A DNA stretch of 32,000 nucleotides, taken from positions 510,001 through 542,000 of the forward strand of contig NZ_CP022339.1 in the NCBI RefSeq assembly GCF_003351905.1, read 5' to 3'. Each line of letters opens with the position of its first letter. The first letter of the stretch is position 1. A program made the translations under genes and the position numbers. Of the stretch, positions 1,394 through 24,886 are shown piece after piece. The stretch is from Candidatus Saccharimonadota bacterium. GTDB lineage: Bacteria; Bacteroidota; Bacteroidia; Cytophagales; Amoebophilaceae. Below the pieces are notes generated by a model that saw nothing but the letters and a program-made list of their open reading frames with translations, ran no database searches and was not told the DNA's origin.

Positions 1394-1501
1394 AGCATTT
1401 TATTGTATATACCCCTAGTGGTTGTTGTTGCCTTTTTCCCCATTCAGGAATCGGCTTTTTGCTTTACTTTTTTAGATAAGTGTTACAATGCCTTTTTGGT
1501 A

Positions 1502-1509
1502 TATATTTG
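1502..1509 (+). promoter_or_regulatory. TAnnTTTG -7-like element upstream of tRNA-Thr
   Basis: TATATTTG lies 40 nt upstream of the tRNA 5' end. Confidence 0.25.
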
Positions 1510-1548
1510 TATATTCATTTGCGGTTTGTAGCAGTGCATTTTTTAGTA

Positions 1549-1621
1549 GCCTCCTTAGCTCAACTGGTAGAGCAACTGATTTGTAATCAGTAGGTTGCTG
1601 GTTCGATTCCGGCAGGGGGCA
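1549..1621 (+). tRNA. tRNA-Thr (anticodon UGU)
   Basis: A hand-folded cloverleaf fits. The acceptor is GCCTCCT/AGGGGGC, the anticodon stem is ACTGA/TCAGT with loop TTTGTAA, and the T arm is GCTGG-TTCGATT-CCGGC. It is 73 nt long and no CCA is encoded. Confidence 0.9.
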
Positions 1622-1700
1622 CGCAATGGCGGGGGCTTAAGCGCAATCTATTCTGGCACAGAGGTGCAATAGGTCAAGTCACTCCCCTCCCTAAATCACA

Positions 1701-2492
1701 TCACACCCGCTTCATCCTATTCAGATCTACTGGACCCGTAATACCTTGGACAGGTCCTCTACTATCGTATTGCCAAATGCTCCAATCACGCCAACCCCTT
1801 GGTAACTCATCTGGTAAGGGTGGCTGTTCACGCCATCTAGCAATCCATAGTGGACATTTCTGAACTATATCAGGGGTTACTGCTACATACTTGTTCCAAA
1901 AAGATGTGCTTGTATAGATGTAAGGCATAACCTTGGCATAATCGTTGAGATACCGAACACTTTGTTCTGTAACACGCTGCACTAAAGTGTAATCAGCACC
2001 GTCATGTTCCTCTACATCTAGTGCGATAATAGAGGCCTTGTCAGCCAACAGCCCTGCATTGCTTAGCTGAGATACAAAATTTTTCATTTGTGCTTCAGGA
2101 GAACTCGAGCCAAACCTTAAAAAATGATAGGCACCAGGCTGGAAACCTGCCGCACGCATCTGCGCCACATTTTGTAAGAAATTAGGATCTTGATAGGTGG
2201 CACCCTCTGTTGCCTTAGCAATAACAAACGTTTTACCACTGCGGCCAGGGGTGCATTGCTGCCAATCTATTGCGCCTTGATGATGGGAAATATCTATGCC
2301 TTCTGCATAATTAGATTGCGCTACGTTCCCTGTGGAATGCTTATACATATTCCATTCGTTAGAGGATACACATGATAGAGACAGGGCAACAATTGCCAGC
2401 TTATCTATTGTATTGATCCATAGCCTACCACTCAGGTAGCTTAAACAGGCTGCTTGCCTTTGTATTTGCATATAGTCTAAAATAATGCACAA
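1701..2492 (-). CDS. Glycoside hydrolase family 25 lysozyme (muramidase), probably secreted or a lipoprotein. The true start may be the Met at 2471.
   Basis: GIDISHHQGAIDWQQ...FVIAKATEGATYQDPNF...GAYHF...IALDVEE is GH25 (Chalaropsis-type) muramidase signature sequence. The N terminus is hydrophobic and has a lipobox-like LSLSC. Confidence 0.8.
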   Translation of the reverse strand: MCIILDYMQIQRQAACLSYLSGRLWINTIDKLAIVALSLSCVSSNEWNMYKHSTGNVAQSNYAEGIDISHHQGAIDWQQCTPGRSGKTFVIAKATEGATYQDPNFLQNVAQMRAAGFQPGAYHFLRFGSSSPEAQMKNFVSQLSNAGLLADKASIIALDVEEHDGADYTLVQRVTEQSVRYLNDYAKVMPYIYTSTSFWNKYVAVTPDIVQKCPLWIARWREQPPLPDELPRGWRDWSIWQYDSRGPVQGITGPVDLNRMKRV

Positions 2493-2779: not shown

Positions 2780-3034
2780 GTATATGTTCAGCGCGATGGT
2801 TTTTTGCGTCAAAAAAACCGCCCCTGTAAAAAGCCGTGGTGTAGAAAGTGGCATCTGAGAGATGATTAGGAAAAACAGTTCATTAAAAGCCCACGCAGTG
2901 GGCGCTTTCTGTTTTTCCATCTGTAAGCTGACACTTTCAGCGACATTTTACCGAGGGCTTGATTTTTTGTCCACTTTTTTATCAAGAAAAAAGTGGAATA
3001 AAATTCATTATGAGCCAGTAACATAAACAGATAC
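2780..3034 (+). repeat. Palindromic MITE-like element, copy A (255 bp)
   Basis: It aligns over its full length with 13090-13341 and, in reverse complement, with 28505-28761. The head is GTATATGTTCA and the tail is ...AAACAGATAC. It contains nested hairpins at 2889-2903 and the TCCACTTTTTT/AAAAAAGTGGA stem. Confidence 0.85.
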
Positions 3035-3086
3035 AGATGAATCATGGATAATGATACGCATTGGGTTAATGACTAAAAATTTGCAT

Positions 3087-3689
3087 ATGAAAATCCATTC
3101 TATTGCTCTGGCATCTAGTAAGGCGAGCTATACAATGTGCCCCCAAGATACTAAACCAGAAGTTGCTTTTATAGGCCGTTCTAATGTAGGTAAATCCTCG
3201 TTAATCAATGCGCTTTTACAGCGGAAGCAATTGGCTAGGGTATCTAAAGTGCCCGGGAAAACAGCACTGATCCATCACTTCTTAGTGAACAACCAACTCT
3301 ATTTTGTAGATCTGCCAGGATATGGATGGGCACAGGTAGGGCATGCTACAAAAGTAAGGTGGGGGAAAATGTTGCGGGACTACCTCTTGCATAGGCCCAA
3401 TATGTCTACCGCCTTTTTATTAATGGATGCAAAAATTGCACCGCAAGCCATTGACCTTGCATGCATCAGCTGGCTGGGTCAGCATCATATCCCTTTTGCC
3501 ATTATACTTACAAAAGCGGATAAAAAACATAAAATAGTCGCCCATAAACACTACATGACCTTAACGCATACCTTGCAACAAGAATGGGCTACCATACCAC
3601 CTGTCTTTATGGTCTCTGCACACAATAAACTAGGCATGGAAAACGTCCTCGGATATATCCAAGCGGTTACGCAACCTAAAGATGAATGA
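3087..3689 (+). CDS. engB: Ribosome-biogenesis GTPase EngB (YihA/YsxC)
   Basis: PEVAFIGRSNVGKSSLINALL is the G1 motif, DLPGYG is G3 and TKADK is G4. I chose the start at MKIHS (3087) to match the usual family N terminus. The ORF is open from 3051. Confidence 0.85.
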   Translation: MKIHSIALASSKASYTMCPQDTKPEVAFIGRSNVGKSSLINALLQRKQLARVSKVPGKTALIHHFLVNNQLYFVDLPGYGWAQVGHATKVRWGKMLRDYLLHRPNMSTAFLLMDAKIAPQAIDLACISWLGQHHIPFAIILTKADKKHKIVAHKHYMTLTHTLQQEWATIPPVFMVSAHNKLGMENVLGYIQAVTQPKDE

Positions 3690-9292: not shown

Positions 9293-9627
9293 GTGATAAT
9301 GAAGGAGGAGAGAAATATTTTAAGTGTTTAAAATGTGGGGATTATTACAAAAGTTCTAATGATGAGGTTAGCCAATACATCTTAAAGCATACTTGCGGCA
9401 GATGCAATACATGTTTAGTGTCTAGTAATACATGTGCATGTAAATTTAGGGATTCAATAAAAAGGCACTGTAACCAATGCTGTGATCGTAACGAGCCTAG
9501 TTCCTGTTAGCCCAAAATGGTCATATCTATTCCAGTCACTGGTTTTTATGTTAAAAGAACAACGCTCCTGTAAAAATATACTGGCCTGAATTTTTCGGAC
9601 ATTTTTTTTACTTTTCTTTCCCATTTT

Positions 9628-10481: not shown

Positions 10482-11055
10482 TTATTGTTTACTCTTTTTT
10501 AAGATACTTTCCCAAGTATGCTTATTTATAATTTGTTCTTGACCACTTATTTCTTTATAAGCAATTAGTTCAGGATGAGCATGCTCACTATTAAGAATGA
10601 TCCAATTATCACAAATAGGCAAGTATAGGGTTGTCAAATTTACTATACTCCTTTTATATCTTCTTTCTATTATATCGACAGGAATATTATGACCACCATT
10701 TTCAACTCTTTTTTGAACTCTTTGTTTGGCTATATCAACGGAGCTTAGCCAAAAGTAATATAGGGATATAAGATAATTTTTATTTTTTGCTATTTTTATC
10801 AAGGATACATAGCGCCGACTTGCTAAAGTTGTTTCCAGTGCAAAATTTACCCCTTTTTGTATCAATTCGTTAATGCGAGCGATCATTATTCTTCCCGCTT
10901 GTATAGCAACCTTATCAGGGTTGAAAGGTGATAATCCCCAGGCGATTTGATCAGCATTTACAAACTCTTTACAATGTAACATCTCAGGTAATATAGTAAA
11001 GCTTGCTGTAGTTTTTCCGGCTCCATTAGGTCCAGATATTATATATATGTTTCAT
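10482..11055 (-). pseudogene. Zeta-toxin-like P-loop kinase (COG4185-type AAA ATPase), frameshifted at its 5' end
   Basis: The Walker A sequence IISGPNGAGKTT is encoded in frame upstream of the first in-frame ATG (10982). It is preceded by an in-frame TGA at 11052-11054. The only plausible ATG (11053-11055, MKHIY) is out of frame across a (TA)n run. Confidence 0.65.
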
Positions 11056-11131: not shown

Positions 11132-11398
11132 TTTATAGTAAGTAATGGTGCTAAATTGGATATATAAAATAAGTATGGTAATACTCCTTTACATATTGCA
11201 TCAATTAATGGGCATATAAAAATAGTTGATCAATTATTAAATAATGGTGGTAAATTAAATATACAAAATAATAATGGTGATACTCCTTTAATGATCGCAT
11301 ATGATCGTGGGCATAGAGGAATAGCTGAGCGATTAATAACTCAGGCAGCGTGGGATAGAATGTCTCAAGGCCTAAAAAATTATAATTTAAATAATTAG
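11132..11398 (+). pseudogene. Ankyrin-repeat protein gene fragment with no start codon and an internal TAA
   Basis: The translation is ...NGAKLDI*NKYGNTPLHIASINGHIKIVDQLLNNGGKLNIQNNNGDTPLMIAYDRGHRGIAERLI...*. That gives two clear ANK repeat units (G-TPLH-A---GH---V--LL--GA). A stop lies at 11165-11167 and there is no ATG upstream. Confidence 0.7.
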
Positions 11399-12509: not shown

Positions 12510-13067
12510 ATGAAGGTATTGTTAGTTGGCTTGGGTAATATTGGTGCAGCATATGTTTATACCAGACATAATCTAGGCTTTTTAGTAGTGGACCATCTAG
12601 CAGCTCAACAAAAAGTTGCATTTCAAGTAGGTAGGTTGGCTGCTGTTGCCTTTTTTGCTTACAACCATCATCAAGTCTATATGATCAAGCCTACAACCTA
12701 TATGAATGACAGTGGTCGGTCCGTTAGGTATTGGTTGCATCACTTAAACATCCCTATTGAGCAGAGTTTAACGGTTGTAGATGATAGCACGCTTCCTTTC
12801 GGTACGATGCGTTTGCGGGCCAAGGGTTCTCATGCAGGCCATAATGGCTTAAAAAGTATCGCTGAGGCTTTAGTTTCAGATCACTACCCTCGTCTTCGCG
12901 TGGGTATTGGGAATGATTTCCCTAAAGGGGGGCTTGCCGATTTTGTATTGGCCAATTTTAATACAAAAGAATTACAAGATATGGATGGCCACTTAGATAG
13001 GGCAAGCCAAATATTGATGGCTTGGTGCAATAAAGGCATGGTCCATGCGATGAACCAGTTTAACTAA
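12510..13067 (+). CDS. pth: Peptidyl-tRNA hydrolase
   Basis: MKVLLVGLGNIG..Y..TRHNLGF...KP.TYMN.SG......DD..LPFG..RLR.KGS.AGHNGLKSI is classic Pth. Confidence 0.92.
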   Translation: MKVLLVGLGNIGAAYVYTRHNLGFLVVDHLAAQQKVAFQVGRLAAVAFFAYNHHQVYMIKPTTYMNDSGRSVRYWLHHLNIPIEQSLTVVDDSTLPFGTMRLRAKGSHAGHNGLKSIAEALVSDHYPRLRVGIGNDFPKGGLADFVLANFNTKELQDMDGHLDRASQILMAWCNKGMVHAMNQFN

Positions 13068-13072
13068 ATACT

Positions 13073-13341
13073 GTATGTATTCAGCGCGCGTATGTGCTCA
13101 GCGCAATGGTTTTTTGCGTCAAAAAAACCGCCCCTGTAAAAAGCCACTGAAAGTGGCATCATACAGATGATTAGGAAAAACAGTTTCCTTTGAAGCCCCC
13201 CGTAGGGGGCGCTTTCTGTTTTTCTATCTGTTAAGATGACACTTTCAGCGGATTTTTACCAAGGGCTTGATTTTTGTCCACTTTTTTATCAAGAAAAAAG
13301 TGGGATAAAATTGATTATTAACCAGTATCGTGAACAGGTAC
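13073..13341 (+). repeat. Palindromic MITE-like element, copy B (269 bp, with its 17-bp head duplicated in tandem)
   Basis: It begins 5 nt after the pth stop. The head GTATGTATTCAGCGCGC is repeated as GTATGTGCTCAGCGCA. The two arms are inverted copies around the tip hairpin at 13195-13210. The tail is ...CCAGTATCGTGAACAGGTAC. Confidence 0.85.
13195..13223 (+). terminator. Possible intrinsic terminator formed by the repeat's tip hairpin, downstream of pth
   Basis: The stem is GCCCCC-CGTA-GGGGGC and is followed by the T-rich tail GCTTTCTGTTTTT. Confidence 0.3.
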
Positions 13342-13573: not shown

Positions 13574-13861
13574 TTATACTGAACCAGCAGCTTTAATTTT
13601 TGCTGCAAAGAATTTAGAATGCTTAAAAAATGGGATGTAGTGTTCTTCTACCACGATAGCCGTATTGGTACTAATATTGCGTCCAATTTTTTTAGCTCTC
13701 TTTTTTTTAGAGAAACTACCAAATCCACTAAAATGCACCCGATGATTATCTGTTACAGCACTTTGAATCACACGAAATAATTCATCTAACGTATTTTTGA
13801 CATCTTCTTTATCAATACCCGTTTTACGGGAAATTGCTAAAATTACCTCTGCTTTAGTCAT
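13574..13861 (-). CDS. hup: HU/IHF-family DNA-binding protein
   Basis: MTKAEVILAISRKTGI.KEDV...LDELF..I......N.RV.FSGFGSF..KKRA.K.GRN..T is the HU fold signature. The product is 95 aa. Confidence 0.9.
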   Translation of the reverse strand: MTKAEVILAISRKTGIDKEDVKNTLDELFRVIQSAVTDNHRVHFSGFGSFSKKKRAKKIGRNISTNTAIVVEEHYIPFFKHSKFFAAKIKAAGSV

Positions 13862-14778: not shown

Positions 14779-14922
14779 GGGGATCGTACTTTTTGTTTGA
14801 TCAAAGGCATACATTGATTCAAGAGGTAAGGAAGTGTTCCCTCAATGGCGTTAACTTAAGGAATATATTTTATTGACTGTCAAATAAAAGTGTGTATTTA
14901 CGACACGGGGTAGCAAGGCAGT

Positions 14923-14981
14923 TTTATTTTTACCTTTGTCTTGATAAGAAAGTAAAAATAAATCAAGCCCTTGGCAAAAAG
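14923..14981 (-). repeat. Degenerate fragment of the palindromic element (copy E), abutting the tRNA-Arg 3' end
   Basis: TTTATTTTTACCTTTGTCTTGATAAGAAAGTAAAAATAAATCAAGCCCTTGGCAAAAAGT aligns with 28539-28597 of copy D (TTTATCCCACTTTTTTCTTGATAAAAAAGTGGACAAAAAATCAAGCCCTGGGTAAAAAGT). Confidence 0.55.
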
Positions 14982-15055
14982 TGCGCTCGGAAGGACTCGA
15001 ACCCTCAACCTTCGGAGCCGAAATCCGACGTTCTATCCGGTTGAACTACGAGCGC
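14982..15055 (-). tRNA. tRNA-Arg (anticodon UCG)
   Basis: The reverse complement folds as GCGCTCG-TA-GTTC-AACCGGATA-GAAC-G-TCGGA-TTTCGGC-TCCGA-AGGTT-GAGGG-TTCGAGT-CCTTC-CGAGCGC-A. It is 74 nt long. Confidence 0.85.
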
Positions 15056-15795: not shown

Positions 15796-15968
15796 AGTGG
15801 CTGTATGGACAATATGGCAGGCTGTCCTGCTTTTCGCAAATCCCATTTCACCTTGTATGAAACGGTTGTTCTCCATGGTTAGGAGCATATATGTGACTCA
15901 ATAACCCGTTGCATAACCTGTTGCCAGATTATAAGGGATATAGTGTCCATTTAACTCAGTAAGCTCGT

Positions 15969-16979
15969 ATGACTCAATCTGTCCAGGCGGTTTTACAAGA
16001 CCTGCAAAAAGGGATCTATCTTCCTGTCTATTTTTTGCAAGGGGAGGAGGTATACTATATCGATGCTATTACGCAACATATCGAAGAGAAACTGCTTGCA
16101 CCAGCTGAAAAAACCTTTAACCTAACCATTGCCTATGGCAAGGAATCCAGTATGGCAGCTTTACTTACCCAAGCACGCCGTTTCCCAATGGCTGCTGCGC
16201 TACAAGTGGTTATCGTGAAAGAAGCACAAGAGATGGCAGACTTAAAAAACACGGTAGGGCAACGGTTATTGTTGCATTATTTGCAGCATCCACAGCCTAC
16301 TACGTTATTGGTTTTTGCATATAAATATAAAACTATAGATGGCCGCAGTACATTTGGTAAAGCCTTAAGTAAACATAGTATACTGATTACCTCTAAAAAA
16401 CTATATGATCAGCAACTGCCTGCTTTTATCCAAGCTTTTGTAGAAAACCTAAAGCTGTTTATAACAGAGCAAGCCATTTGCTTAGTAGAAGCCTATATAG
16501 GTAACGATCTAACACGAATCGCTAGTGAACTGCATAAATTGCATATTAACCTTACGCCAGGTAGTACCATTACGGATGGCATGGTAGAAGCCTATATAGG
16601 TCTGCAAAAACCCTTCAATGTATTTGAATTACAAAAGGCCATTATGCAAAAAGATTACCCGAAAAGCTACCAAATCATTAGCGTTTCCAAGGAACATGCT
16701 GCCCTACCTATGGTCACCATTTTATACAACCTGTTCGCTAAGCTGCTTATATTGCACCAAACAAAAGAAACCATTCCTACGAAGCTTGCGGGGCAAATTG
16801 ATATACATCCCTATTTTATACAAGGCTATCTCGATGCAGTGCAGAACTATACGTTGCACCAAACCATGGACAATATAACCTATCTGCATCAAGCTGATCT
16901 GCAATTAAAGGGCATTGATGCCAATGTAAGTGAGGAACAGATTATGAAAGCCTTAATCTTTAAGTTAATGCACCCTTAA
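15969..16979 (+). CDS. holA: DNA polymerase III subunit delta
   Basis: The product is 336 aa. The N terminus ...PVYFLQGEE.YYID.I...IE and the overall layout match HolA of Bacteroidota. Confidence 0.75.
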   Translation: MTQSVQAVLQDLQKGIYLPVYFLQGEEVYYIDAITQHIEEKLLAPAEKTFNLTIAYGKESSMAALLTQARRFPMAAALQVVIVKEAQEMADLKNTVGQRLLLHYLQHPQPTTLLVFAYKYKTIDGRSTFGKALSKHSILITSKKLYDQQLPAFIQAFVENLKLFITEQAICLVEAYIGNDLTRIASELHKLHINLTPGSTITDGMVEAYIGLQKPFNVFELQKAIMQKDYPKSYQIISVSKEHAALPMVTILYNLFAKLLILHQTKETIPTKLAGQIDIHPYFIQGYLDAVQNYTLHQTMDNITYLHQADLQLKGIDANVSEEQIMKALIFKLMHP

Positions 16980-17243
16980 TGGAAGGAGTGCAACCAATTG
17001 GAAGGGATGCAGTGGGTATGCATTTTCTTATAAAAAATGTAAAAGCGCCTGCACAACGTAGTAAGATAACCTAGAAATCCCTATTTTGGATAGGTGATAT
17101 TTTAGTCATGCGTATAGATGCGGCCAGTAAGCATCTGTCTCAACGGAGCAGCAGGGTAGCTACGCCGTTGCATGGTGGAGGATGCCTTGTCTGTGTGCCA
17201 AGACGACTACAAAAAAGTGCTTATTATTGAACCTAATGTACCG

Positions 17244-23015: not shown

Positions 23016-23065
23016 CTGTTTTTATCAAGTTGTTTTTAGCTGTGTCATACGCGCAGATTTATTTA

Positions 23066-23509
23066 ATGAAAGCTATGAAATATAAGAAAGTGTTGATACT
23101 ATGGTTGCTCACATTAGGGGGATGTAATACCTTATCTAAGCAACATCAAAATCCTTACCATCCAGTCTTGACTCATTATATCCCTGTTTATTCTGCTGTT
23201 CAGCATACTTATTCTTCTCATTGTCTCGATGCTACGCTTTGTTATAGGCATGCTTGTGATCCTGTTATCCGTTTCCCTGCTGATTATCCTGCTTCTGTTG
23301 CTGATTATAGGTACTCCTTTGTTCCTCCTGATGCATACACCCACTCCTCTTGTTGTATGGTTAACCAGAATGAGGTGGATGATTCTGTTTGTTCTGCTAT
23401 TTCTGCTTACCCTCCTAGTGCTGTTTGTCCAGTTGTTATACAGGCCAGTGTTACTAGTTGTGCACCGTTTTGCTTCATCGGGTGGTTTGGGTGCTTTTGC
23501 TATCCCTGA
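23066..23509 (+). CDS. Cys/Tyr/Pro-rich hypothetical lipoprotein
   Basis: MKAMKYKKVLILWLLTLGGCNT is a signal peptide plus lipobox. This is the only one of three overlapping open frames with a recognisable N-terminal signal. The family is unknown. Confidence 0.5.
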   Translation: MKAMKYKKVLILWLLTLGGCNTLSKQHQNPYHPVLTHYIPVYSAVQHTYSSHCLDATLCYRHACDPVIRFPADYPASVADYRYSFVPPDAYTHSSCCMVNQNEVDDSVCSAISAYPPSAVCPVVIQASVTSCAPFCFIGWFGCFCYP

Positions 23510-23568
23510 TTGTTGTATGCAAAAGGCCTTAAAGCATCTATAGTAGACCTTTTGGTTCATCTAAAATG

Positions 23569-23731
23569 GTATTTGTTCATGATACTGGTTAATAATGAAT
23601 TGTATCCCACTTTTTTTTGATAAAAAAGTGGACAAAAAATCAAGCCCTCGATAAAATGCCAATTTCTACACCTCGACTTTTTTCAGGGGCGTTGTTCTTT
23701 TAACGCAAAAACCACTGCGCTGAACACATAC
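23569..23731 (-). repeat. Palindromic MITE-like element, copy C (163 bp, central palindrome tip deleted)
   Basis: The ends GTATTTGTTCATGATACTGG... and ...GCGCTGAACACATAC match the tail and head of copies B and D. About 94 nt present in copy D (around 28586-28679) are missing. Confidence 0.8.
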
Positions 23732-23760: not shown

Positions 23761-24123
23761 TTAATCAGCTTCCAATTGGTCTATCAAAGCAGTCACACGT
23801 GCGCCTTGCATCACCGAACGATCGATGATAAACTTTAAATTGGGTATTTTATGCATTTTCCCCGCCACCCTTTTGCCTAATAACCTTCTCATCGTACTTT
23901 TATGGCCATCAATCTTTTGCAATAAGGTTGCCTGCTCCTCATTCAGGGAAAAGCTGAGATATACTTTTGCCAGACTCAGGTCACTGCTTAAGTCAACCGT
24001 TGTAACTGAGATCACTGCACCCCCAAACAACCGAGCGGTTTCTATTAAGAATAGTATGCCCAGCTCCCTTTGCACGAGCTTAGCCATTTGTTTTATTTTA
24101 ATCGCATGAGTAGCCTGTACCAT
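23761..24123 (-). CDS. rbfA: Ribosome-binding factor A
   Basis: ...QMAKLVQRELGILF......ISVT.VDLS.DLS.AKVYLS....EE......L..H....R..L..R....K.IP.L.F..D matches the RbfA pattern. I chose the start at MVQ to avoid overlapping tpiA. The ORF is open to 24147. Confidence 0.85.
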   Translation of the reverse strand: MVQATHAIKIKQMAKLVQRELGILFLIETARLFGGAVISVTTVDLSSDLSLAKVYLSFSLNEEQATLLQKIDGHKSTMRRLLGKRVAGKMHKIPNLKFIIDRSVMQGARVTALIDQLEAD

Positions 24124-24127
24124 CTTT

Positions 24128-24886
24128 TTATTCAAGTAATGCAGCAACTATTTGCATAAATGCATCCACCTGCAGCGAAGCCCCTCCAATCAGCCCACCC
24201 GCTACGTTAGGAGAGCGCAATATAGCGTTTGCATTTTGTGGATTGCAGCTCCCACCATATAGGATAGGAACGTTTTCGCCTGCACATAGCTCCGATAACA
24301 CCTCCCTTATAAAGGCGTGCATTTCTGTAACCACTGCTAAGCTAGCTACTTGTCCAGTGCCAATTGCCCAAACCGGCTCGTAAGCAATCGCTACTGTTTC
24401 TATTTCCTTTGATGTTAAGCCCATTAAGCTTTCTTGCAACTGTTGTTGCACCATTGTTTTGTGGTTGCCATGCTTGCGTGCTGCTAAACTTTCACCACAG
24501 CAAAGAAAAGGTTGCATACCAGCCTCCAATACCCTTTTTATTTTTTGAGCCAACAGTCGATGATCCTCCTTTTGGTAGTTTCTGCGTTCACTATGCCCAA
24601 TCAGTACACCCTTTACACCTATAGCGGCTAGCATAGCCGCTGATACTTCTCCCGTAAAAGCACCCTCTGCCTCATGGTGACAATTTTGAGCAATGAGTTG
24701 AATAGCGTGTTGATCACCTATTAAGTCAGCTATAGCCGACAAATGGACAAAGGAAGGGGCAATGTATAGCGCTAATGAACCCGCGTTTATGGCCTTTAAC
24801 TCAGGCAACAATGCCCCCATAAAGCCGATGACCTCTTGGGCCGTTTTGTACATTTTCCAATTACCTATAAGGTATTTTTTTTGCAT
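24128..24886 (-). CDS. tpiA: Triosephosphate isomerase
   Basis: GNWKMYKT, IGHSERR, AYEPVWAIGTG and YGGS are the TIM catalytic and signature motifs. Confidence 0.95.
   Translation of the reverse strand: MQKKYLIGNWKMYKTAQEVIGFMGALLPELKAINAGSLALYIAPSFVHLSAIADLIGDQHAIQLIAQNCHHEAEGAFTGEVSAAMLAAIGVKGVLIGHSERRNYQKEDHRLLAQKIKRVLEAGMQPFLCCGESLAARKHGNHKTMVQQQLQESLMGLTSKEIETVAIAYEPVWAIGTGQVASLAVVTEMHAFIREVLSELCAGENVPILYGGSCNPQNANAILRSPNVAGGLIGGASLQVDAFMQIVAALLE

Follow-up and report, generated by a model that had tools for sequence, protein, structure and literature searches.

Here we describe a palindromic repeat of about 255 bp, which we interpret as a MITE, or miniature inverted-repeat transposable element, that recurs in a 32,000-nucleotide stretch of contig NZ_CP022339.1 (assembly GCF_003351905.1, positions 510,001 to 542,000; hereafter the window). 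The window is DNA of Candidatus Cardinium, a symbiont of insects and mites, and its identity with strain TP is 92-95%: two loci of Cardinium sp. TP (L022 and L023; L numbers denote the comparison loci and contigs) are syntenic with it, their genes being 87-96% identical, and the pth protein of a Cardinium metagenome-assembled genome (MAG) is 96% identical to that of the window. The genes that neighbour the repeat encode a GH25 lysozyme, EngB, Pth, an HU/IHF-like protein, RbfA, a UCH-type ubiquitin protease and a DUF4293 protein, and every piece of the repeat is intergenic. One full-length copy is placed between the divergent GH25 lysozyme gene (1701-2492, minus strand) and engB (3051-3689, plus strand); a second lies downstream of pth (12510-13067), which is convergent with the HU/IHF-like gene (13574-13861, minus strand); and a third, again between convergent genes, begins 6 nt past the stop codon of the UCH/USP gene (27212-28498). 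A shortened copy is flanked by an open reading frame (ORF; 23030-23509) and rbfA (23761-24147, minus strand).

The three full-length copies are 84-86% identical in pairwise comparison over ~255 nt (BLASTN of copy against window, E 1e-74 to 1e-83), and BLASTN places them at 2780-3034, 13090-13341 and 28505-28761, as in a preliminary description of the window made from its letters; the stretch 13073-13089, which that description had counted as part of the second copy, is a partial duplicate of the head. The shortened minus-strand copy at 23569-23731 was recovered by BLASTN and by profile search, gene annotation agrees with the contexts described (lysozyme/engB, pth and USP), and the location of all pieces between genes holds. 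The fragment reported at 14923-14981 is real but was drawn too small: it belongs to a truncated long-tail copy spanning ~14830-14987, in which the outer 31-nt end repeat (14830-14861) is followed by a short IS-derived subterminal module and by the tail and second-hairpin region (IS, insertion sequence). The copies listed earlier are likewise real, but three pieces were absent from the list, those at 9523-9576, at 28762-28843 and, as no more than a weak remnant, at 1620-1663. The X module at 28762-28843 has a counterpart in a 486-nt composite unit of another Cardinium locus (L003), positions 94-429 of which match window 28833-28502 at 86% in the same arrangement. The 23569-23731 copy has lost the middle of the palindrome (profile positions ~82-165), and the same deletion is seen again in several TP copies. 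All features are collected in Table 1.

Table 1. Copies, remnants and associated sites of the repeat in the window, and units flanked by target-site duplications (“duplicated” units) in other Cardinium loci
Feature	Position	Strand	Remarks
Weak, tentative remnant resembling inner end repeat plus X module	1620-1663	+	Directly after tRNA-Thr; 76% over 42 nt, E 0.001
Full-length MITE copy, 255 nt	2780-3034	+	nhmmer profile positions 1-258, E 1e-79
Head-only fragment, profile positions 2-55	9523-9576	+	BLASTN; nhmmer E 1e-6
Partial duplicate of head, 17 nt, GTATGTATTCAGCGCGC	13073-13089	+	Starts 5 nt past pth stop codon
Full-length MITE copy, 252 nt	13090-13341	+	Profile search E 1e-77
Truncated long-tail copy	14830-14987	-	Cut at tRNA-Arg 3' end; nhmmer 14982-14894, profile 167-254
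Internally deleted copy, head (profile 2-81) and tail (166-257) kept, central palindrome lost	23569-23731	-	
Full-length MITE core, 257 nt	28505-28761	-	Profile search E 3e-82
Partial X module joined to head of 28505 copy, ~80 nt	28762-28843	-	Outer end repeat missing
Empty target site CATTTTTT, single copy	1537-1544	+	4 nt upstream of tRNA-Thr; window 1500-1720 aligned with L022:2930-3610
Terminator-like apical GC hairpin, GCCCCC-loop-GGGGGC then GCTTTCTGTTTTTC	13195-13225	+	Top-ranked; oriented to stop pth
Equivalent terminator-like sites	2889-2903; 28650-28636	+; -	Same scan
Duplicated basic unit	L001:5550-5806		AATTTTGG, as scored on locus plus strand
Duplicated basic unit	L028:142-399		TCCTATTC
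Duplicated variant unit	L004:5124-5436		CTTATTAC
Duplicated variant unit (composite)	L003:3281-3766		GGGAAATA

Alignment of 33-34 copies gives the element sharp boundaries with unrelated flanks and inverted ends of ~20 bp, GTATCTGTTCA(N4-5)AnTGG. The 11-bp terminal repeat noticed earlier is therefore correct but falls short of the true length; the terminal repeat reads GTAT[C/G]TGTTCA...TGAACAGATAC, with two head variants, GTATGTGTTCAGCGCAGTGG and GTATCTGTTCCAGTCACTGG, and a tail that on the other strand reads GTATCTGTTCACGATACTGG. The basic element is 252-258 nt long. Larger variants comprise a “long-tail” form of 313 nt, the composite of 486 nt and “double-head” forms of 287-338 nt, which are frequent in this family and are transposed as a whole. 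In the long-tail and composite forms the outermost ends consist of a 31-nt repeat, GTATCTGTTCAGCCAATGGCGTCAACTTAAG. As first described, no reading frame is conserved, which now holds across 34 copies; the element contains no transposase gene, and the ORF that overlaps it has no Pfam match.

The interior is palindromic. Either strand can be folded as a long imperfect hairpin, GC-rich at its tip, and a second hairpin with an 11-bp stem, as had been proposed, with minimum free energies (MFE) of -94.7 kcal/mol on the plus strand (z = -7.6) and -94.6 kcal/mol on the minus strand (z = -9.6). The 62 consensus pairs are 97.4% paired across 34 copies, mostly through sequence conservation. In one copy (L026:924-1173) the central ~55 nt is inverted relative to all others, and the loop of the tip hairpin (alignment A2 columns 125-127) reads AAA in roughly one half of the family and TTT in the rest, as if the tip had flipped. 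Deleted copies repeatedly lose the central palindrome. Inversion, loop switching and loss of this kind are the behaviour of a palindrome at the DNA level and give no sign of a selected RNA. A ~740-nt insert at L012:4707-5445 (minus strand) lies within the long-tail module of another copy; its first bases are GTGCG and a domain-V-like motif is found close to the 3' end, which suggests an ORF-less or decayed group II intron, and Rfam made no assignment to it at the gathering threshold.

Evidence for transposition comes from other Cardinium genomes. We paired all facing ends lying 100-700 nt apart, which gave 63 candidates, and asked whether the 8 nt just beyond one end matched those just beyond the other: nine pairs were identical at all eight positions and three at seven of eight, where shuffled pairing expects 0.24 and 0.17, respectively. 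The duplication-bearing units are 103, 179, 255-258, 287-338, 313 and 486 nt in length. One of them, a 103-nt deleted copy in strain TP (L022:2977-3079), lies 4 nt upstream of tRNA-Thr between CATTTTTT and CATTTTTA, and the corresponding site of the window is unoccupied (Table 1). The family shows signs of recent activity in at least strain TP. The copies in the window, which lack duplications and share only ~85% identity with one another, would accordingly be old. The statement that no target-site duplication accompanies the element was thus true of the window copies but false of the family, which makes 8-bp duplications elsewhere in Cardinium.

Taken together, the family displays features by which a MITE is recognised, namely its size, inverted ends, duplications of fixed length, dispersed copies, insertion polymorphism and ends that match those of an autonomous IS. 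The preliminary description had proposed a non-autonomous transposon and a genome-wide search as the means of checking it. That search yielded further copies with conserved termini, an empty site, duplications and a full-length IS of the IS4 family with the same ends, the flanks of the copies are not duplicated along with them, and the proposal is upheld. The element is a standard kind of selfish DNA, and the picture of how MITEs operate is unchanged by it.

The family is restricted to the genus Cardinium and common to several of its lineages. An exact 30-nt core around the second hairpin was found in 32 stretches in a scan of 185,579 species-representative genomes (one genome per species), all of them Candidatus Cardinium, mostly strain TP, together with cBcalN2 and the symbiont of Nabis limbatus. 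A profile search returned 33 near-full copies in the TP loci, copies in a closely related MAG and diverged copies in cOegib, the symbiont of O. gibbosus. The core had no match in plasmid or phage collections, and we rejected carriage by a plasmid or phage represented there; it was also absent, by profile search, from 30 metagenome contigs that carry the outer end repeat. Individual sites differ among genomes. The copy at 2780-3034 has an orthologue in TP (L022:4664-4919) that is 90.2% identical, next to intergenic DNA that is 87.2% identical. Downstream of pth the site is empty in cOegib (L035). In the close MAG (L033) it holds a different variant, only 70-78% identical while pth itself is 95% identical, which points to turnover or conversion between copies. 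In cBtQ1 (L036:10571-~10820) the same site holds a very diverged relative of ~250 nt with ends GTATCTATTCAG and GTATATTTGTTCA, which the profile search did not detect.

No IS with the ends of the MITE was present in the loci analysed first. A metagenome scan for TGTTCANNNAATRGCGTYAACTTAAG returned 30 contigs (L038-L067) with GC contents of 0.32-0.47, which share GTA[A/T][C/G]TGTTCA(N3)AATGGCGTCAACTTAAG and then diverge into unrelated interiors. Many of the elements on these contigs are tiny (95-274 nt), and three small ones have 8-bp duplications (L043, TTGATGGC; L059, GGATTTTT; L064, CAATGTAG). One contig, L056, contains at positions 58-1466 a complete IS of 1,409 bp with 33-bp inverted ends, GTAACTGTTCACGCAATGGCGTCAACTTAAGGA, and a single ORF of 421 aa. 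The ORF matches the IS4-family model NF033592 (E 7.9e-55, 186 bits against a cut-off of 115) and Pfam DDE_Tnp_1 (PF01609; 56.5 bits against 23), and has a complete YREK motif, Y-2-R-3-E-6-K, in YIMRWHIEECYKRLK. The long variants of the MITE agree with this IS at 29-30 of 32 end positions. Homologues of the transposase at 69% identity, named “IS4 family transposase”, occur in Cardinium sp. TP (P0153) and in cOegib (P0150), with a partial homologue in strain DF, the symbiont of D. farinae; further homologues were seen in gammaproteobacterial MAGs (P0169 and P0187). The near-invariant 31-nt end across contigs of GC 0.32-0.47, together with homologues in Bacteroidota symbionts and gammaproteobacterial MAGs, indicates that this IS clade spans very different hosts.

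Within Cardinium the link is seen at TP locus L068, where GAATCTGGTCTCTCAATGGCGTCAACTTAAGGGATATTTATATTGATTTT precedes the transposase gene. Over 50 nt this sequence shares ~84% identity with the long-tail end of the MITE, the match consisting of the end repeat itself and a further 16 subterminal bases without a difference. The cOegib copy of the IS retains AATGGCGTCAACTTAAGG at its right end. Halter et al. (2022) reported an IS4-family element, ISCca13, with four intact copies in cOegib (PMC9769881), and P0150 is probably its transposase. A duplication of 8 bp is within the ranges published for the IS4 subgroups IS4Sa, IS50 and ISPepr1 (PMC2266710).

We consider it very probable, from these shared ends and duplications, that the repeat is a MITE derived from and moved in trans by an IS of the IS4 family. 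The mover would be the DDE transposase of that IS, in Cardinium probably ISCca13 or a close relative (a name we infer), which would bind the ~20-31-bp inverted ends, GTATCTGTTCA...AnTGG(CGTCAACTTAAG), excise or copy the element and make cuts staggered by 8 bp at the point of insertion, giving rise to the 8-bp duplications. Since the longer variants carry ~50 nt of the left end of the IS, the family would have begun as an internal-deletion derivative of it and would later have diversified as copies became nested, recombined and lost the central palindrome. The copies in the window occupy intergenic “safe” sites, including the 3' ends of genes and the flanks of tRNA genes.

Several observations weigh against this interpretation. 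The window contains no transposase gene, and we found no duplications on its copies. L068, the sole Cardinium copy of the IS with an end that matches the MITE, has a right end interrupted by another IS and an ORF of 405 aa against 421-424 aa; the interrupting element is IS481-like (L068:4240-5430, ends TGTCAGATTAAATC..., inserted at CCTTAAGTTG^) and N-filled sequence lies beyond it. The same IS481-like end type also occurs in L033 at 15866-17065. The tip of the cOegib copy has diverged (GGAGGTGCACAAG...), several environmental copies have untidy tips, and those of the full-length environmental ISs L070-L076 are unreadable owing to contig ends and fold-back assemblies. The basic 255-nt element has only ~20 nt of the 31-nt end of the IS; the duplications around basic units argue that this shorter end is recognised by the transposase. 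The terminal GTA differs from the CA, CAT and CT ends tabulated for IS4 subgroups (PMC2266710). Finally, the first ten bases of the MITE (GTATCTGTTC or GTATGTGTTC) also resemble the ends of two other Cardinium elements, the IS6-family ISCca2 of cBtQ1 (GGATCTGTCG) and an IS256-family element of cOegib (GGAAGTGTTC).

A second question is whether the selfish element has additionally been co-opted, as an intrinsic terminator or structured-RNA module at the gene ends of a reduced genome, as we think possible though rather unlikely. In a scan of the window the three top-ranked terminator-like sites are GCCCCC-loop-GGGGGC hairpins of the MITE copies followed by GCTTTCTGTTTTT (Table 1), and these are correctly oriented for pth in the 13090 copy and, on the minus strand, for an rlmB-like gene in the 28505 copy. 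The fold is very stable on both strands and its pairing is maintained across the 34 copies, with one compensatory change, CCCCC/GGGGG to CCCAC/GTGGG. However, covariation is a weak signal, which we do not accept as proof of a functional RNA: five pairs have changes on both sides where shuffled alignments give 2.0 +/- 1.2, a level reached in 16 of 500 shuffles. The two strands fold equally well, as a DNA palindrome would; the copies are not consistent in their orientation to neighbouring genes, that at 2780 being flanked by divergent ones. Copies from which the hairpin has been deleted still persist, and the sole cleanly orthologous full copy, that at 2780-3034, has diverged about as much as the intergenic DNA beside it. 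A search of Rfam 15 assigned the element to no known RNA family: only tRNAs passed the gathering threshold, the best sub-threshold scores being 26 bits against 80 and 20 against 57. A terminator role for the central GC hairpin and the T-run after it is possible from their match to the consensus. A more elaborate reading, which we hold to be doubtful, combines both themes: the element would be the local product of a widespread IS4-family clade that repeatedly spawns unrelated MITEs, its palindrome being kept at gene ends as a supply of terminators in a decaying genome.

That the selfish element is a MITE moved instead by another 8-bp-duplicating transposase of Cardinium, of the IS6-family ISCca2 or the IS256-family ISCca9/10, seems to us very unlikely. 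The IS256 and IS6 families both make 8-bp duplications. Both are also abundant in Cardinium (PMC9769881), and their ends share the tip noted above. The likeness nevertheless stops after ~10 nt, where the long variants of the MITE continue to agree with the end of L056 and over ~50 nt (84%) with that of L068 in TP. In 243 kb of MITE-rich TP loci, tblastn with the IS26 transposase as query found no IS6 transposase. ISCca2 was accordingly rejected as parent, its ends in two cBtQ1 copies being GGATCTGTCGCATCTAC with only ~10 nt of similarity, as was the IS256-family element, whose cOegib copy has 24-bp ends, GGAAGTGTTCTATAAACTGTGTCA, that are similar at the tip only. The IS3, IS481-like and Transposase_31 genes of L033 were also tried as parents, and their ends are unrelated.

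A palindromic repeat of a non-DDE kind, whether of the Rickettsia type, a REP/BIME moved by a RAYT or an IS200/IS605-type element, would account for the long imperfect palindrome, the intergenic copies and the lack of duplications in the window, and a likeness to the Rickettsia palindromic elements had been suggested at the outset. We regard this as highly improbable: terminal inverted repeats of 20-31 bp and 8-bp duplications are both foreign to these classes, a DDE IS with the same ends exists, and no copy lies in frame within a gene; the suggested likeness to the Rickettsia elements, in particular, is unsupported in view of the terminal inverted repeats, the duplications and the intergenic position. 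Segmental duplication of the 3' regions of genes, which the start of two copies 5-6 nt past stop codons might bring to mind, is refuted by the flank alignments and has next to no chance of being correct, as the terminal repeats mark precisely where similarity stops, the genes on either side are unrelated, and copies occur in both orientations at dozens of unrelated loci.

Further observations concern the surroundings of the copies. Copies and remnants repeatedly adjoin tRNA genes: at the 3' end of tRNA-Arg (window 14981-15055, minus strand), on both sides of tRNA-Thr (window 1549-1622; L022:2977-3079 in TP) and, beside another tRNA in TP, at L012:5474-5564. The adjacency could stem from a preference for such targets or from copies surviving better beside tRNA genes. 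The ORF at 23030-23509, which had been called a Cys-rich lipoprotein gene, has no Pfam match and is absent from strain TP, where the counterpart of window 23030-23731 (L023:2926-3205) is a full-length copy in the orientation opposite to that of the deleted copy of the window; the difference suggests an element-associated rearrangement or deletion. The UCH gene (27212-28498), which codes for a eukaryote-like ubiquitin protease, and its orthologue in TP have an identity of just 84%, against ~95% for neighbouring genes. The head fragment at 9523-9576 falls in a 1.2-kb stretch without an ORF of at least 80 aa, which is bordered by an ORF with a Zeta-toxin domain (10482-10982, E 4e-7). At 11136-11333 lie two tandem 99-nt units, 75% identical, in a region with no ORF of at least 80 aa, which look like a decayed repeat-protein gene.

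The closest published parallel is MITECca01, a MITE of ~240 bp with 169 copies, which Halter et al. (2022) traced to the IS982-family ISCca4 and reported to be lacking in other strains (PMC9769881). The two elements are alike in host genus, size (240 against 255 nt), lack of autonomy, mostly intergenic location, high copy number and origin from a resident IS. They differ in that MITECca01 has inverted repeats reading ACGTGAATTCGGGATT then AGMTTGTW and an AT-rich, non-palindromic body (Fig. S1 of PMC9769881), whereas the present element has an IS4-family parent, a strong palindrome and a range of several Cardinium lineages instead of one. Identity with MITECca01 or MITECca02 was rejected from the published sequences, that of MITECca01 having no BLASTN similarity to the present element. 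Relatives of MITECca01, an element reported to be confined to the symbiont of O. gibbosus, occur in Cardinium sp. TP at L030:3509-3749 and L029:7462-7626; the first of these is full length, 68% identical to MITECca01, ends in ACGTGAGTTTTGGATT...AATCCAGAACTCACGT and is nested in a copy of the present element.

Parallels further afield are those of kind. The MIC231 elements of the Bacillus cereus group are larger than the present MITE and carry passenger genes. They share with it a non-autonomous nature and IS4-family ends, and are moved in trans by the transposase of IS231. IS231 differs in its CAT ends and 10-12-bp duplications (PMC2266710). Correia elements of Neisseria, together with other MITEs in which terminators or promoters are present, offer a possible functional resemblance, being short, bounded by inverted repeats, able to form stable hairpins and able to affect transcription of neighbouring genes (PMC10969869). 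Correia elements are, however, 100-155 bp long with TA duplications, and their effects have been shown experimentally, whereas the terminator of the present element is a consensus match only. Like QMITE1 and QMITE2 of Coxiella burnetii and the Rickettsia palindromic elements, the family consists of palindromic repeats that have proliferated in an obligate intracellular bacterium (PMC10969869). The Rickettsia elements differ in being inserted in frame within genes and in having neither terminal inverted repeats nor duplications (PMC10969869), and the Coxiella elements share no sequence or parent with the present family as far as tested, its core having no match outside Cardinium.

Full-text searches of the literature, made for MITEs of Cardinium and with the end sequences, turned up no account of this family, the end sequences returning only chance matches to primers, and the family therefore appears to be undescribed in the literature searched. 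It would be the second MITE family of Cardinium, where previously one had been described and reported as strain-specific. Repeats make the genomes of Cardinium difficult to assemble and to annotate. The family profile lets annotators mask the copies, and insertion polymorphisms can serve as markers for strain typing. The family may also explain local rearrangements, such as that at the MITE site where a gene of the window is missing in TP, and if the central hairpin does terminate transcription, the element would in addition shape the expression of neighbouring housekeeping genes.

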